Of a stretch of DNA of 64,000 nt, positions 28,760 to 38,530 are shown in pieces. This DNA is from Chthoniobacteraceae bacterium (GTDB lineage Bacteria > Verrucomicrobiota > Verrucomicrobiia > Chthoniobacterales > Chthoniobacteraceae). The notes under the pieces are model-generated. The model saw only the letters and a program-made list of their open reading frames with translations. It did no database searches and had not been told where the DNA came from. Numbering within the stretch: position 1 is the first letter of the stretch; every line of letters starts with the position of its first letter. Location: the NCBI GenBank assembly GCA_037190965.1, contig JBBCKI010000003.1, forward strand, positions 1 to 64,000, read 5' to 3'. The position numbers and the translations under genes are program-made.

Positions 28760-31700
28760 TCAAAGGTCGCCGGCTGTCCATTTGACCGCAGCATCGAATA
28801 GCAAGTACCCATCGGTGCCAAGGGTGGCCCCATTAGCCAATGGGAATGCAACACGACGGCTCGGTGCGATTAAACCGAGCAGACCGGCATCCATTTCATA
28901 AGAGAAGATTCCAGCCTTGCCGGGAACACCAGCGATTTCCGCAACAGTCTGAGCGCTTGGGAGTGGTATCCCCCACGCATGATCGGTGGGAGCGCTCGTC
29001 AAGGCGACTGTCCCGCTTAGTCCAGCTGCTAAAGAATCGGCTGGATTCGAGATGGTGACATTAGTGGCTCCTGTCGTGATCCCATAATCCACGGCAGCCG
29101 TGGCACCCGTCATTCCCAAAGAGGGGTAGATGCTTCCTCCCCAGCAAAGAATGGGCACTTCACAGAGGCTGAAAGTGGATCCAATTGCAGGTGAGGAAGA
29201 GGAGGAAATAACGAGCAGATCCTTTCCAATAGCGTCGTTGAGGACAACGGCACCATCGTCGATCACTGTTACATTGTAACCGAGATTTTCCATTCTTAGC
29301 TTCAATGCGGCATCCTCAGCGTTTGGAACGGGGGTTCCCGTTACAAAGAGGATCTCTCCTGGAATGGTGGCTTTCTGGACAGTCACTGCTGAGGGAGCGG
29401 AGACTGCAACGCATCCATTGCTATCAGTCGCCTGAGCCACGAAGGTATACTCACCTGCCGGAATGTCGGATAGGGAGAGAGAGTATGGCGAGGTGAGGTC
29501 TTCGCCCAGTTTGTTTCCTGCGCGGTCGAAGAATTCCACCTTGTCGATGGTGGCTCCAGAGCCGGATGCTGCCGCGACAAAGCTAAGGGAGCCGGGTGCC
29601 GGGGTACTCGTCCCATTGAGCGGAGCAGTCAGCGCAACCGAGGGTGGCGTTAGGAAAAAGACGTTCGGCTTGCCATTGAGAATGGTGCTGTGGCTCGTGA
29701 TTGAGTTAAAGACGTTGTTCCCCATCCCAATCTTGAGATCGACGTTTGATGCAACAGCCCAACTTGCGGCCAGTGCAGTGCCTCCATTGGCGTTGAATGT
29801 GTTTCCATTCATGGAAAGCCAAAACACTACAGGAATGCTGGTATTTGAATTCGTTGGGTTCGCCAAATTAATGGCGCGAAAGTTCGCATTTGAGGAATTG
29901 ACGACGTTGTTATGAAATGAGATCCGATTGAAGTCATTTGTAACAGTCAGGAACTTCGTTCCACTTGTGGTGATCGTATTGCCTTCGAGATGGACTTCTT
30001 GCAGGGGGCTCCAGGCGCCTGTTTCAACGGTTGTGTTCGTGAGAGTGCATCCCCTGAAATTGAGGGTGGTCTTCTGCAATCGAAACGATGAGTTGACTAC
30101 CTCGGACTCGACGACTTCCGATGGAAGCGTCATGTTTGCCGTCAGAAATGTGCTGTTTTCAACATAGCAACGCTCCAGACTGAAGCGGTTGGTACTGGCA
30201 ACGGCGCCGTTGACATTACAATCGACCAACCTCGATCTTACCGGACCGCCGAGGATGTCGCACTGATAGAAATAGCCGAACTTAAAAGTGGTTGGATCCG
30301 TGTTATGGGAAACAGCTCCCCCGTAAAGATTATTATTCTTGATGCAATACTCACGATCGAGCCAGATCAGGTTGTGTGTTATAGCCAGCCTTGTTTCCCC
30401 TAGGACGTCGTTGTTGTAGACTCGAAAGTGAACCATTGTTTTGTACGGGCCGATATCAAAGGTGGCTTTTTTGAAGACGTTATCGCGAACGACAAAATTT
30501 GCCGACCGCGTCGTGGAATAGTACCCCATGACGTTCCGTTCGACGACAAAGTTGTGCCCAGCAAAAGCGACAAATTCATTGACTGGGTTTGTCCCGAAAA
30601 CATTATCGTGAAAATAGAGATCCTGCATTAGATCCCAGCCATCTTCCGCGTCGAAAGCACATTTCGCCATGGCCCAGCCAACGTTATTGAATGTGCATCC
30701 TGTTACGGTAAGGTTATGGAAGCCGGAGGGCACCATCCCAACGCACCGGACATCTTGAATATCGAGATCGATGAGATCGCAGTTATAGGGAGTCCTGATG
30801 TTGAAAAGTGAGACGCTGTCATTCGGAAGAGCGGTGGCACTGTAGAGGGTGAATTTTGCATAGCGCGCATTCGCTGGCGGATACATCCTCCGGTAGAAAT
30901 GACCTAATGTAGAACCAATGTAATTGTTGGATACATCGTAAAATGCGGCCCGGTAGATCCAGTTGTCCGGAAGTGGGTTACCTTGGTAACCAAGGTATTT
31001 CCCCAGTTGGAAAAATCCTTTGGAGCCCATGTAGGTGGAGATATCGACGGCGGTGTTGCAAGCCGTGCGGGTTGTCGAGGGAACGAGAAGTCCTGTCGTC
31101 TCGTCAATCTCGCCGAGTGTGAATGCTCCCACCGATTTGGGCGGGTTGTGACTAATCCCTACGTTAACGGGGCGCCGGGCATATTCGAAGCTGGTTGCAA
31201 CCCCATAGCCCGTGATTTTTTTAACCACAAGGTTCTCAAAGGAACAGTACTCAGCCCCTTGTCCCAAGAGAATCCCCACCAACCATTCGCTGTTCGGGCT
31301 GACACTGAAATTGTGGTTATCAAGATCTCCCTCGATGGTTCCGTTTTCGACGTGTGAATCGACGCAGTGGGCGATCTCCAGGATGTATCCCTTATCAAGA
31401 GAACTTGGATTGAGTCGGAGAGTGGAACCGTTGAGGTCAAGTGTCATCCCTGTGACCATCTTGACTGTACTGTTTTCGTCGATCCGATAGATACCCGTAG
31501 GAAGAATGACTTTCCGATAGCCGTTAGTCCCGGCCCAAACGAGCATGTTATTGAGCCCGCTGGTGGTGGCAACGGGATTCGTGTCGTTCGAGTAAATGCC
31601 AAAACTATTAAAGAGATCAACAGTAGTAGGACTATAAGTTTGACCTGCTGTAATGGGGTGTGTAACAGGATCTACCACTCGAAAGTTTTGGTACAGAACA

Positions 31701-32080
31701 TGCGACTTTCGCCCCTGTGAATCCGTGACCTGAATCGCCAGGCGCACTTCGCTCTTCGGGGTGGTGAAAACCGGGAGCGTGATAGTGTGGTCACCTCCTC
31801 TTACGGTCCGATTCTGATAATGCACGCCGTCAATCGAGAATGAGACCGTGAGTTTCTCGCTGCGGTCATTAAAGCGGTAGTCACGATTTTCATAATCGGT
31901 GACGTAGAAGTTTAAGGTCTGACGTTCGCCGACATTGATGGTTTTCTTTAGAGAATTAAGGGATACGTAGGGAGTTCGATTCTCAAATGCGAGCTCTGCC
32001 CTCAAGGGGGCTATTAACAAGAGAAAAAACGCCAGAAGAACTGGCACCGTTAATTTTAAGTAGAGATTCTGGGAGCTCAT
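28760..32080 (-). CDS. Large secreted right-handed beta-helix protein with Ig-like and C-terminal accessory domains
   Basis: Signal peptide; LPTGIYRI...LDLNGSTL pectin-lyase-like start; Asn-rich beta-helix repeats; PSVALTAP...KVEFF...GEYTFVAQATDSNG Ig domain. Confidence 0.75.
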   Translation of the reverse strand: MSSQNLYLKLTVPVLLAFFLLLIAPLRAELAFENRTPYVSLNSLKKTINVGERQTLNFYVTDYENRDYRFNDRSEKLTVSFSIDGVHYQNRTVRGGDHTITLPVFTTPKSEVRLAIQVTDSQGRKSHVLYQNFRVVDPVTHPITAGQTYSPTTVDLFNSFGIYSNDTNPVATTSGLNNMLVWAGTNGYRKVILPTGIYRIDENSTVKMVTGMTLDLNGSTLRLNPSSLDKGYILEIAHCVDSHVENGTIEGDLDNHNFSVSPNSEWLVGILLGQGAEYCSFENLVVKKITGYGVATSFEYARRPVNVGISHNPPKSVGAFTLGEIDETTGLLVPSTTRTACNTAVDISTYMGSKGFFQLGKYLGYQGNPLPDNWIYRAAFYDVSNNYIGSTLGHFYRRMYPPANARYAKFTLYSATALPNDSVSLFNIRTPYNCDLIDLDIQDVRCVGMVPSGFHNLTVTGCTFNNVGWAMAKCAFDAEDGWDLMQDLYFHDNVFGTNPVNEFVAFAGHNFVVERNVMGYYSTTRSANFVVRDNVFKKATFDIGPYKTMVHFRVYNNDVLGETRLAITHNLIWLDREYCIKNNNLYGGAVSHNTDPTTFKFGYFYQCDILGGPVRSRLVDCNVNGAVASTNRFSLERCYVENSTFLTANMTLPSEVVESEVVNSSFRLQKTTLNFRGCTLTNTTVETGAWSPLQEVHLEGNTITTSGTKFLTVTNDFNRISFHNNVVNSSNANFRAINLANPTNSNTSIPVVFWLSMNGNTFNANGGTALAASWAVASNVDLKIGMGNNVFNSITSHSTILNGKPNVFFLTPPSVALTAPLNGTSTPAPGSLSFVAAASGSGATIDKVEFFDRAGNKLGEDLTSPYSLSLSDIPAGEYTFVAQATDSNGCVAVSAPSAVTVQKATIPGEILFVTGTPVPNAEDAALKLRMENLGYNVTVIDDGAVVLNDAIGKDLLVISSSSSPAIGSTFSLCEVPILCWGGSIYPSLGMTGATAAVDYGITTGATNVTISNPADSLAAGLSGTVALTSAPTDHAWGIPLPSAQTVAEIAGVPGKAGIFSYEMDAGLLGLIAPSRRVAFPLANGATLGTDGYLLFDAAVKWTAGDL

Positions 32081-32370
32081 AAAAAAACACCATATTTTTT
32101 TCAACCGGATGATGCGGGAGAATTCCCAACGCTGAGAACGCGTCAACACAATAGCAAAATCGATATTACAAAAAGGATCTATTAGTCAAATGCATTTTCA
32201 CATATAGCCACCCTATAGAACTATCGGGCTATACCCGACAACCCGCATAGGTGCTTCTAGTGTTATATTTGGCAAACTCCTTAAACCTGAATTTCCGATC
32301 TTGGAGCAGGCGAAATCATGCAGAGCTTGAAGCAGAAACGGTTAAGAAGAAGCGAAGCCCCATCTCTTTT

Positions 32371-34647: not shown

Positions 34648-34791
34648 TGCGCCGTATTGAAGCCGAATCCCACGGTCGGCGCGAGCGCAATTGCACTCCG
34701 CCAGCGGCCTCTCCAAGACCCTCCGGATAAAACATCGTCCGGCGATTTTCGCTTGCGAACATCGCGTTCGAGAGGCAGCAATCATGGAGCG

Positions 34792-35919
34792 ATGCGTCCT
34801 CCCCGCCCCAACTTCCTCCCCTTTCTGGCGATCTGCTGCGCCGGCCTGAGCATCGGCCTGATCTTTTGGGCCCGGAATCGCGAGATCCCCAGAGGAGACG
34901 TGAACAGCCTGCCCACGCTTCCCGACCAAACTACCTCATCTTCCGGGGAGACCGCCCCTCCCCAACCAACTGAGGCCCCTCCGGAAACGCTCCCCTCGCC
35001 CGACGAAACCACGGCCCCAGGCGAGCCGACCGCTCCCGAGCCTCCGGAACCCGTCCGCCCTTCGGAAGAGGAACTGACCGGGCCGCTTCCAACCCGGGAC
35101 CCGGGCGAACAAGTCGCCAAAGCACCCGCGCTCCACGCGCCACTGGCCGCGGCCCCCACCGCTCTCGATCTCCCCTCGCTCGCGCAGCAACCCAAGCTCT
35201 GGCCGCCTCAAGTCACGCTTCGCGAGGCGGTCCGCTTCCCGGTCTTCCGCGACGGCGTGGAAAGCGGCAATATCCAGGTTCCCGCCGGTACCGTCGTCTT
35301 GCTGCGCAAGATTCACGCGAACGGAAAGCTGGAAGTGGAACATCTTAAATGGCTGACCACCGTTCCGGCGACGTCCACCGATTTGCTGGCGCGCATCAAG
35401 CAGGCCTCGGCCCCAGCGGCCCCGACGGCTCCAGCGGCCCCGACGGCTCCAGGGACCACCACCGCCTCACAAGCTGCGAAGCCGACCGCCACTCCTGTGC
35501 CGGCAGGTCCACCTCTTCTGGCCATCACCGTCAAACGGGACCGCCGCAGCGAAAACGGCCCCGGCGGCACCCCGCGCAGAATATGGCATTTCAGCGTCAG
35601 CGTGCAGAACCCCGGCAAAGAAAAACGCCCCAAACTGCAAGGCCACTTCTTCGCCATCACGCGAACCGCCGAAGGCGCCCTCGTCCTTGCCGCGACTGAA
35701 AAGCTGACCTGCGACCTCGACGCCAACGGAGAGATCACCCTCACCCCGCCCCCTCTCGATCTCGACGACTCCCGTCCCCTCGACAGCTTCGCCGTCGTGT
35801 TCCGCGATGCCTCCGGAGCCATCGCAGGCTCCACTTCCACCCGGGAATCGCTCACCAAAGACTGGGCAACCCTGGAAGCGATGTCGCTGGGAACGATCCT
35901 CCCCGCAGCTAAGCCCTAA
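34792..35919 (+). CDS. Hypothetical membrane-anchored Pro/Thr-rich protein
   Basis: N-terminal TM helix, Pro-rich linkers (internal 18-bp tandem repeat near 35412-35452), two small globular segments; GC-rich codon usage. Confidence 0.65.
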   Translation: MRPPRPNFLPFLAICCAGLSIGLIFWARNREIPRGDVNSLPTLPDQTTSSSGETAPPQPTEAPPETLPSPDETTAPGEPTAPEPPEPVRPSEEELTGPLPTRDPGEQVAKAPALHAPLAAAPTALDLPSLAQQPKLWPPQVTLREAVRFPVFRDGVESGNIQVPAGTVVLLRKIHANGKLEVEHLKWLTTVPATSTDLLARIKQASAPAAPTAPAAPTAPGTTTASQAAKPTATPVPAGPPLLAITVKRDRRSENGPGGTPRRIWHFSVSVQNPGKEKRPKLQGHFFAITRTAEGALVLAATEKLTCDLDANGEITLTPPPLDLDDSRPLDSFAVVFRDASGAIAGSTSTRESLTKDWATLEAMSLGTILPAAKP

Positions 35920-36355: not shown

Positions 36356-36910
36356 ATGGAGAACGCCCACATACTTCCGATGGCTGAAAGGAGCTTTGAT
36401 CCCGTATATCACGGCACATCCCAAGAGAATTGGGAAAGTATCCGTCAGCAGGGGCGATTTGTCGTGGCTAAAGCCCGGATGGGGAAGTCACCGGGGTATT
36501 TGGGCGATGGTGTTTATTTCTATGAGTCTTCTCACGAAGACGCTTGGATTTGGGCGAAGGACGAAAAAAGATTCCCGCTTCCAGTCGTTGTCAAGGCCTG
36601 CATTCAGGCACTTAGATGCATTGACTGCTGCGATTGGAGTGTGGTGAAAGCTTTGGATCGAGCATATGTCAAGTTTGAGAAGAGGATGCGGAATGAGGGC
36701 CGAGAGCCTAAAGAGCCTTACTTTTTTCATTGGCTGGGTCGGCACGTGCTCAAAGAAATTGACTGTATTCGGGCCTGTCAAAGGCGCCCCAGTGCTCGCC
36801 GTGAGCTTTTATGGTCGCGGTTTGAAAGCAATCGCCTTGTGATTTGTGTGAAAAAGCCGGAAGTCATTGCAAAATTTGAAATTTTTGAGGAAAATCAGAA
36901 AGACTTATGA
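36356..36910 (+). CDS. ADP-ribosyltransferase-like toxin (CmdT-like) of a toxin-antitoxin-chaperone operon
   Basis: VYHGTS and GYLGDGVYFY motifs of HYx-class ARTs; C-terminal ICV strand; first gene of an overlapping three-gene operon ending in a SecB-like gene. Alternative start 36380. Confidence 0.75.
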   Translation: MENAHILPMAERSFDPVYHGTSQENWESIRQQGRFVVAKARMGKSPGYLGDGVYFYESSHEDAWIWAKDEKRFPLPVVVKACIQALRCIDCCDWSVVKALDRAYVKFEKRMRNEGREPKEPYFFHWLGRHVLKEIDCIRACQRRPSARRELLWSRFESNRLVICVKKPEVIAKFEIFEENQKDL

Positions 36911-37410
36911 AGGCGGAAGACATTGAAGCCAGATTAAACGCAGCTTTTGACGGGATGTCCGATGAGGAGTTCCGCGAGACGCTCGACGACGAAGAGATCG
37001 AGTACTTCTCGACGGTTGAACCCTTGGGGATTATCCCAAGCGCATCGCTTGTCAACGTCAATGTGGCCGCCGGTGCGGCGTGGGCAGCCTTGTTGGCCGA
37101 TTCCTTGCGCCGGAATGCAAGGGTGCAATGCGAGTTTATATCCGCGCACCTGCACTCTGATGCAGAAAAACAGCATTCTGACGCGTCGATAGAGTGGCTT
37201 TCTTCTGTTTTGAAAGATTGGTTGGGGGCGAAACCCTTGGAGAAGGCGATTGAGATTTCTTACGTTAAGCCCAATGATTTTTGGAAGTGTGAGCGCAGCG
37301 CAAAAGAGACCGATTGCTCCATTCCCCGAGTCCCCATGAAGGCATTTCAAGATACTTCAAGACCTGGAAAGGAGGCAGCAGAGAATGAACATCTCGCCCT
37401 TGCAGCTTAA
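36907..37410 (+). CDS. Putative antitoxin (CmdA-like) with C-terminal ssrA-like degron
   Basis: ATGA-coupled to the toxin; acidic helical N-terminus; C-terminus AAENEHLALAA; lies between toxin and chaperone. The role is inferred from position. Confidence 0.65.
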   Translation: MKAEDIEARLNAAFDGMSDEEFRETLDDEEIEYFSTVEPLGIIPSASLVNVNVAAGAAWAALLADSLRRNARVQCEFISAHLHSDAEKQHSDASIEWLSSVLKDWLGAKPLEKAIEISYVKPNDFWKCERSAKETDCSIPRVPMKAFQDTSRPGKEAAENEHLALAA

Positions 37411-37846
37411 ACATAGTTGGATTGAACGGCTCGATTTTCAATGCGCCTCTTTCGGGGAAGATGTGTCTGATACGTCAGATGTATCTGTAGAGGTTGACTA
37501 CGGACAGCATCCGTCGAACCCGCAGGAGTGGATGGTTGGGCTCACTACAGTCATTTCAAATTCTAACGAAGAAGAGGTGGCGAAATATTTGGCAACGGTC
37601 AAATTTGTTGGACTATTTCGAGTCGATGCTGAGTTGGAAAGAGAGAAGCAGTTGAAGATCGTGGCAGTTAATGCGCCGTCAGTCCTTTTCTCCGCGACGA
37701 GGGAGGTACTTGTGCAGATAACAGCTCGAAGCCCTCTTGGGCCTATTGAGCTCCCTACGCTTTCTTTCTTGGGGCACAATCTCACTGAGCCTGATGCGCC
37801 AGCGGAGGCGCGGGAAGGCGGCGTTGAGTCGCAGGGGAAGGCTTAG
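37385..37846 (+). CDS. SecB-like chaperone (TAC chaperone, CmdC-like)
   Basis: SPLQL N-terminus; YLATVKFVGLF strand; VNAPSVLFSATREVLVQITARSPLGPIELPTLSF matches the SecB NAP.ILFP..R......T.......LP..NF signature. Confidence 0.85.
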   Translation: MNISPLQLKHSWIERLDFQCASFGEDVSDTSDVSVEVDYGQHPSNPQEWMVGLTTVISNSNEEEVAKYLATVKFVGLFRVDAELEREKQLKIVAVNAPSVLFSATREVLVQITARSPLGPIELPTLSFLGHNLTEPDAPAEAREGGVESQGKA

Positions 37847-37859
37847 TTCTAAGAATACC

Positions 37860-37900
37860 AACAAACCCCGGCCTTCCAGAAGGAGGTCGGGGTTTTGTTT
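37860..37900 (+). terminator. Rho-independent terminator of the TAC operon
   Basis: CCCCGGCCTTC...GGAGGTCGGGG stem followed by TTTTGTTT, 14 nt after the stop. Confidence 0.7.
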
Positions 37901-38455: not shown

Positions 38456-38530
38456 GCGCGGTTAGCTCAGCGGTAGAGCGCTTGCTTCACACGCAAGAAG
38501 TCACAGGTTCGAACCCTGTACCGCGCACCA
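38456..38530 (+). tRNA. tRNA-Val (anticodon CAC)
   Basis: Acceptor GCGCGGT/ACCGCGC, D-arm AGCTCAGCGGTAGAGC, anticodon arm CTTGC-TTCACAC-GCAAG, T-arm ACAGG-TTCGAAC-CCTGT, encoded CCA. Confidence 0.97.

Follow-up and report, generated by a model that had tools for sequence, protein, structure and literature searches.

A putative CmdTAC-like operon with a tmRNA-tag-like antitoxin tail coded across the start of its chaperone gene

In the window, by which we mean the whole 64,000-nucleotide stretch of Chthoniobacteraceae DNA analyzed here, a putative antitoxin gene ends inside the chaperone gene that follows it, and the peptide at its end resembles a tmRNA (ssrA) tag. This raises the question of whether the double use of these bases is a by-product of compact gene order, a lock against loss of the tail, or a degron that the chaperone gene can offer to different partners. 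We favor the last of these, in which the operon is a CmdTAC-like TAC anti-phage operon and the overlap is a portable degron, not a lock, and we put the probability of this reading at roughly 0.6.

The first gene of the operon (positions 36356 to 36910, plus strand) encodes a putative toxin of 184 amino acids (with a second Met at 36380), which profiles and motifs place with the CmdT-like ADP-ribosyltransferases (ARTs). It matches the PADLOC profile PD-T4-9_A with an E value of 6e-4 (6/6 aligned family members match this profile at some level) and Pfam PARP with an E value of 7e-4, which is below the cut-off; the best PDB matches of the toxin-family profile are PARPs (E value of 0.002). The motifs YHGT and LGxGxYF (H19 and Y54) are invariant in 6/6 aligned homologues, and of the CmdT triad H-Y-[E,D,Q] those two residues alone were placed in the window toxin. 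AlphaFold2 models of the toxin have pLDDT values of 43 and 41, which are too poor for fold comparison. The second gene (36907 to 37410, plus strand), which overlaps the first by 4 nt at an ATGA, encodes a putative antitoxin of 167 amino acids, called from its ORF and from its N terminus, which resembles other ART-TAC antitoxins (likeness of 16 to 28%). A long C-terminal extension, with eight aromatic residues past position 40, is presumed to be a putative ChAD. The antitoxin matched nothing in Pfam better than an E value of 0.18 and nothing in PADLOC, and a model of the chaperone tetramer with antitoxin residues 40 to 167 has a score of 0.02, which is uninformative for or against binding.

The third gene (37385 to 37846, plus strand) encodes a SecB-like TAC chaperone of 153 amino acids belonging to a clade with the N-terminal motif M-x-x-S-P-L-Q-L. 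It scores 32.3 bits against Pfam SecB (cut-off, 26), matches PADLOC PD-T4-9_C with an E value of 4e-6, and belongs to a family whose profile matches SecB structures (E value of 2e-13); it is the sole match to that family profile in the host genome. A terminator-like hairpin of 14 pairs (37863 to 37895, plus strand), found by consensus scan only, closes the operon. The gene order is that of TACs: three abutting ORFs with overlaps of 4 nt and 26 nt, a SecB homologue in third place, and then a terminator. The hairpin has T runs on either side and may act bidirectionally. The GC content of the operon is 47 to 52%, versus ~55 to 69% in its flanks. Beside it, as context only, lies a tRNA-Val(CAC) gene (38456 to 38530, plus strand), and the rest of the window was found to hold no long copy of the 3' end of this gene. 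Upstream lie a Pro/Ala/Thr-rich ORF of 420 amino acids with an N-terminal hydrophobic segment and without a Pfam match (34657 to 35919, plus strand) and a secreted-looking protein of 1129 amino acids with a region that is, by eye, a probable beta-helix (28760 to 32149, minus strand). Sequence searches for close homologues of the toxin and of the antitoxin each retrieved only the query itself; a protein atlas gave unnamed clusters (0.96), one of them with PARP in 18% of its members, and none for the antitoxin.

The antitoxin ORF ends in AAENEHLALAA, the final 11 codons of which, with the TAA stop, occupy 37375 to 37410 (plus strand); comparison with the host tag and a survey of ORFs mark this tail as an ssrA-tag mimic. 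Its last 26 nt (37385 to 37410, plus strand) are also the beginning of the chaperone gene, whose product starts MNISPLQLK, and one stretch of bases reads LALAA in the antitoxin frame and SPLQL in the chaperone frame. The chaperone ATG (at 37385) begins one base into an antitoxin codon, which makes the first position of each antitoxin codon the wobble base of a chaperone codon; the antitoxin stop takes its T from the Leu8 codon (CTT) of the chaperone, followed by AA. A Shine-Dalgarno-like AGGAGG, read from the sequence, lies within antitoxin codons 9 nt 5' of this ATG (37370 to 37375, plus strand) and presumably serves the chaperone. Logan contig X1, which may be the source sample, spans the junction with zero differences; contig X2 does not include it. 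Rereading the sequence bears out what an earlier note on this DNA had described, namely the tail, the double reading of LALAA and SPLQL, and identity at 7/11 positions with the E. coli tag AANDENYALAA.

The earlier note had proposed a comparison with the host's own tag. The host genome has one tmRNA (G000:C63 50832-51186), the tag of which ARAGORN matched to Akkermansia; this points to a verrucomicrobial host, here one from soil. The window tail is identical to this tag at 8/11 positions, with the tRNA-borne Ala counted, which is above the value for E. coli, and to the tag of a congener (G1090) at 9/11 positions by eye. The host's tag, rather than that of E. coli, is the relevant template. When 3113 host ORFs (crude calls, 100 amino acids or longer) are compared, the window tail alone reaches at least 6/11 identities to either tag (the next best have 5 and 4), and only the window antitoxin ends in LALAA. 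Part of the likeness comes from the chaperone gene, because its ATG-A forces [NDHY][ED] at tail positions -8 and -7 (here Asn-Glu), and the Glu counted among the seven E. coli matches is therefore dictated by the chaperone start codon. LALAA fits the free C terminus [LFYW]-[LAR]-L-A-A, an ssrA-like consensus derived from E. coli and called C-motif 1, which Beardslee and Schmitz (PMC10862746, in the text available to us) give as the strongest pentapeptide consensus for E. coli ClpXP. The host has clpX (610 bits; cut-off, 371) and, adjoining it on C43, clpP, and SspB (PF04386) was not found in the host genome, which is 97% complete. By analogy with CmdA, from which this estimate is drawn, the window tail is very probably a functional ClpXP degron. 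The constitutive degron proposed by the earlier note thus has the support of published CmdA tests and of the host clpX and clpP genes, and as an idea it is already in print.

How widely the overlap recurs bears directly on what it might be for. Of 130 loci gathered by chaperone similarity, 123 have a start and an upstream ORF, and these give 77 clusters at 60% identity; the other 7/130 loci, which have no start or no upstream ORF, were dropped before the counts, as were the duplicates L063, L156, and L160 and, separately, L168, which comes from the unpublished genome G801 and supports none of the claims made here. The antitoxin runs at least 8 nt into the chaperone gene, in the window's frame, in 46/77 clusters, and by exactly 26 nt in 31/77, in a sample that was drawn with this chaperone clade's profiles, comes mostly from one phylum and from metagenomes, and consists of related clusters. 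In 42/46 overlapped clusters, a CTT codon of the chaperone underlies the stop. Endings in Ala and in Ala-Ala are found in 42/46 and 33/46 of the overlapped clusters and in 18/31 and 11/31 of the others. The overlap occurs with HTH_3, MqsA, HicB, DUF2442, or unclassified antitoxins, so the conservation that the earlier note had proposed to look for among homologues extends beyond its claim to unrelated antitoxins. The remaining 31/77 clusters, the canonical CmdC clade among them, have no such overlap, and it is therefore dispensable. The CmdC-like clade (L032, L150, and L152) has zero overlap. In 12 viral ART-TAC loci, some of them near-duplicates, the 10 called antitoxins all end in AA and none has this overlap; one shows, in the other frame, a candidate overlap of 31 nt. 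A relic Ala-Ala-stop was found in 0/21 non-overlapped chaperone genes, and a stop alone in 5. PD-T4-9_C is matched in 1/401 genomes of the phylum, and a GTDB scan gave 2 loci; a search of E. coli DNA found nothing, and E. coli cmdAC junctions lie outside the compared set.

Several of the gathered loci have features of their own. The chaperones of L017, L016, L020, L023, and L162 have a duplicated N-terminal motif, with the overlap on the extra upstream copy and the structural copy left free, and they look as though degron coding and the beta-strand role had been separated. DUF2442 antitoxins with the TAC arrangement and a 26-nt overlap are found in L125 and L134 (metagenome), HI1420-type antitoxins in L085 and L127, and an unclassified pair in L158; judged from sequence, these are possibly undescribed TAC types. 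An MqsRA-type TAC on a plasmid (L153, NZ_CP020372) lies immediately 5' of DISARM drmA, and several further TAC loci adjoin restriction-modification-like genes.

Recurrence of this kind might come about with no cassette transfer at all, if the overlap simply followed from operons that are tightly packed and coupled in translation, with a degron selected as it is for TACs in general and a Leu codon of the chaperone offering the easiest site for Ala-Ala. A 4-nt overlap is found in 221/416 overlapping host pairs and in 9/77 TAC clusters, and, once the chaperone peptide is set, chance puts a stop here with a probability of ~0.14 and an AA ending with one of ~0.17. Furthermore, in L017, L030, and L162 the motif register shifts and yet the overlap, counted from the ATG, keeps a length of 20 or 26 nt, a constancy that could reflect translation rather than the peptide. 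However, an overlap of exactly 26 nt, seen in those 31/77 clusters, joins only 1/1986 same-strand neighbor pairs in the host genome, and, where syntenic loci with differing TA heads are compared, no DNA is better conserved than the junction. On balance, we consider a by-product or coupling unlikely, if worth keeping in view.

The syntenic loci come from the nearest relatives of the window chaperone. In a quick chaperone tree (LG+G4, unrooted, with 35/74 forks open), it is sister to the chaperones of L068 and L069 (SH-aLRT of 99; 45 to 47% identity), which serve Gp49-family toxins in Gp49/RelE-HTH pairs whose antitoxins are unrelated to the window's. Downstream of L069 are the same genes as in the window (aminotransferase and CPBP-like). 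Within the cassette, the only DNA match to L069 is positions 37375 to 37424 (86% over 50 nt), and 8 of the last 11 residues of the L069 tail are the same as in the window. Upstream of the last 12 residues, neither L068 nor L069 is in the top 10 of 119 in likeness to the window antitoxin. ChAD homology with these relatives beyond the last 12 residues gains no support from protein comparison, and a 10/15 DNA block lying 30 to 45 nt further upstream is only suggestive. It thus seems that the degron moves together with the chaperone gene, and we read the window operon as a hybrid: its head is CmdTA-like, while the closest relatives of its chaperone work with Gp49/RelE-HTH pairs. That an exchange took place, and in which direction, is what we infer from this arrangement. 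Consistent with mixed partners, the 16 ART-TAC chaperones are weakly rejected as a single clade (AU P = 0.03, with an ART group that was defined once a previous tree had been inspected). The overlap requires 13 changes on the unrooted tree, where gain and loss are indistinguishable.

ART-type TACs also allow each tail to be compared with the tag of its own host. Six clearly called ART-type TACs lie in host-assigned genomes; L206 was left out because its antitoxin frame is unclear (its candidate tail is not tag-like) and L209 because no chaperone was seen. By eye and over the tmRNA-encoded residues, the tail resembles the tag of its own host in 6/6 cases, exactly so in three: L187/G708 (10/10), L032/G327 (10/10), and L203/G941 (9/9). 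The partial matches are L190/G658 (8/10), L217/G777 (7/10), and the window (7/10, or 8/10 to its congener G1090). Since most tags in the phylum share their final five residues, the informative part lies upstream, where identities are 5/5 for L187, 5/5 for L032, 4/4 for L203, 3/5 for L190, 2/5 for L217, and 2/5 for the window. Taken as a prediction, L217 is a partial miss, as it fits the tags of two other hosts better (8/10). Only 3/37 non-ART loci with a known host tag reach 7 identities (L036, L148, and L165), and most share just the terminal Ala residues, while L012 has an unusual three-residue core in common with its own host's tag. Among the six ART-type TACs, the overlap is found in the window's only, and the other five end in AA without it, which means that the window antitoxin may have had its degron before it met this chaperone.

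Such whole-tag likeness might instead descend from captured tmRNA tag DNA of the host followed by synonymous drift, not convergence. The exact peptide identity in L187, L032, and L203, at positions that vary between hosts, would fit capture. Against it, the DNA likeness ends at the tag codons, with flanks unmatched, and about half of the codons (5 to 6 of 9 to 10) differ synonymously, which favors selection on the peptide over recent capture; in addition, L187 and the window carry the leading Ala, which tmRNA does not encode. We regard capture as improbable and conclude that tracking of the host's whole tag probably reflects real selection. Four of the other ART-type TACs, L187, L190, L203, and L217, have antitoxins of 86 to 99 amino acids, near-exact host tags, and chaperones distant from the window's (the chaperone start of L217 is uncertain, with a possible frameshift). 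Many related ART-like genes in this class, with YHG[CT] and WLG motifs (among L183-L209 and L219-L232), have no SecB gene in the flank examined, and several are followed by an ORF of 60 to 90 amino acids; these are probably a two-gene ART toxin-antitoxin family. At L178 (G679:C3:91886-92289), we noted a tmRNA whose predicted tag, at 20 residues, is unusually long.

Codon usage across the overlap indicates what each frame is selected for. We held the chaperone peptide and the stop position fixed and redrew synonymous codons in the 43 clusters with an overlap of at least 20 nt. AA endings were observed in 31/43 (expected, 7.2), LAA in 9/43 (expected, 0.9), A[LF]AA in 8/43 (expected, 0.3), and [LF]A[LF]AA in 7/43 (expected, 0.1), an excess whose significance is overstated because the clusters are kin, although saturation of third positions is to be expected below 60% identity. 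The chaperones that begin M-x-x-[SA]-P-L-x-[LIV] comprise 22 with the overlap and 11 without it; CTT stands at codon 8 in 22/22 versus 2/11, as the stop requires, and codon 6 has a final G in 21/22 versus 4/11. The overlap is under selection in both reading frames.

Selection in both frames is not the same as a lock. The earlier note had argued that the overlap would make the degron hard to lose without altering the chaperone, locking trigger and sensor together. On a lock reading, the overlap would be kept since a degron mutation would otherwise free cells from the system. Part of this stands: of the single-base changes in the window overlap, 0/78 are silent in both frames, 15/20 of those that destroy AA alter the chaperone, and deletion of the tail takes the chaperone start with it. 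In contrast, 5/20 AA-destroying changes leave the chaperone unchanged, because the first antitoxin codon position is the chaperone wobble base, as do 9/26 LAA-destroying changes, and three chaperone-silent changes abolish the stop, adding two residues. Endings in TA, AS, SD, or NR are present at some of the overlapped loci, the 31 clusters without overlap get by with no lock (Ala is nevertheless the last residue in 18 of them), and nonsense changes in the toxin would be an easier escape. An anti-escape lock is, in our judgment, improbable. That SPLQL and the start codon alone yield the tag likeness, with the antitoxin frame unselected, is very improbable indeed, for although SPLQL lines up with a structural element, strand beta-1, of housekeeping SecB and ATG-A constrains two tail positions as described above, the chance of [LF]A[LF]AA given the peptide and stop is 0.023 at the window locus, the same ending far exceeds expectation across the clusters, and non-overlapped ART antitoxins bear the same tails.

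We return to the portable degron. SPLQL is also found in non-overlapped loci, so it is a structural motif that happens to suit Ala-Ala-stop: in this clade the conserved beta-1 strand of S-P-L-Q-L followed by K, N, D, or E gives, when read one base back, a hydrophobic tail and Ala-Ala-stop, so that the chaperone gene itself would carry the degron. TA heads of different families could then be exchanged upstream of the chaperone and still end in a degron. That the overlap is such a degron kept through partner exchange has, we estimate, about even odds. For the operon as a whole, phage defense of the CmdTAC kind with an RNA-directed ART is likely. By analogy with CmdTAC, the SecB-like tetramer would bind the aromatic extension at the antitoxin's C terminus until a phage structural protein titrates the chaperone and exposes the tail. 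The exposed host-tag mimic would deliver the antitoxin to ClpXP, and the freed ADP-ribosyltransferase would probably modify mRNA. Binding, degradation, and phage sensing in the window operon are all modeled on that system.

More tentatively, this chaperone clade may hold a ready-made alternate-frame degron while TAC antitoxins copy the whole tmRNA tag of the host, a combined proposition that we consider somewhat doubtful. If it is true, any TA pair landing upstream in frame becomes protease-triggered, which helps explain the repeated recruitment of unrelated TA families into TACs. It would also imply an SspB-independent reader of the upstream half of the tag in this phylum, and a phage that blocks antitoxin turnover would pay the same cost as one that blocks ribosome-rescue proteolysis. 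A second-frame degron is a concrete, testable route for joining SecB-like chaperones to many TA pairs, it bears on the origin of chaperone-addiction tails, and it has a natural syntenic test pair in the window and L069. Host-matched whole-tag tails may limit which hosts suit a mobile TAC. On the practical side, anyone who recodes a chaperone of this clade or tags it at the N terminus will alter the antitoxin degron.

Much of the framework is published. In the portions of these sources available to us, CmdA ends in LAA and is degraded by ClpP, CmdC protecting it until a capsid protein competes (Vassallo 2024, PMC11618068), and an AA-to-DD change in CmdA and clpX, clpP, and lon strains were tested (Mets 2024, 10.1101/2024.02.24.581848), so the degron inference and the DD test of the earlier note are already in print for CmdA. 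Likewise, for the portions available, a review (PMC8165232) covers the Val-Ala degron of mycobacterial HigA1, Guillet 2019 reports the SecB(TA)-ChAD structure, Bordes 2016 (PMC5105189) shows that other TA pairs can be given ChAD tails by laboratory grafting, and Sala 2013 (PMC3581621) proposes independent TA-chaperone associations with no mechanism stated and mentions 4-nt overlaps in two loci. In the literature searched, which was mainly open text without supplements and was available in part, we found neither dual coding nor mimicry of a whole host tag described for TACs; the conserved double reading, the proposed natural exchange of heads, and the host-matched tags did not turn up there.

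Compared with CmdTAC (PD-T4-9), the window operon has the same order of an ART-like toxin, a small helical antitoxin whose long tail ends in LAA, and a SecB-like chaperone, and ClpXP-dependent activation is the mechanism to be expected here too. The differences are that its chaperone falls outside the CmdC clade (PD-T4-9_C E value of 4e-6 versus 3e-38 for L032) and that its antitoxin has no match to the CmdA profile PD-T4-9_B at an E value of 1, a profile matched by 1/6 aligned ART-TAC antitoxins. The operon works like CmdTAC by its anatomy, but because of these two differences we do not file it as a strict CmdTAC member. Three CmdTAC-type plasmid and phage loci have gaps of 3 to 12 nt in place of the window's overlap, and the CmdTAC papers, as far as their text was available, mention the terminal AA or LAA and not a whole-tag mimic. 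The tmRNA tag has the same length as the window tail and, in the host's case, the 8/11 identity given above, whereas the window tail is genome-encoded and constitutive. In the M. tuberculosis HigBA1-SecB(TA) system, for which our sources were also partial, a C-terminal extension holds both the chaperone-binding site and the ClpX degron, as is presumed for the window. That system has a RelE-type toxin and a Val-Ala degron rather than an ART and an Ala-Ala tail, dual coding is unreported in the text available, and the grafting done there in the laboratory has its suggested counterpart here in a natural exchange.
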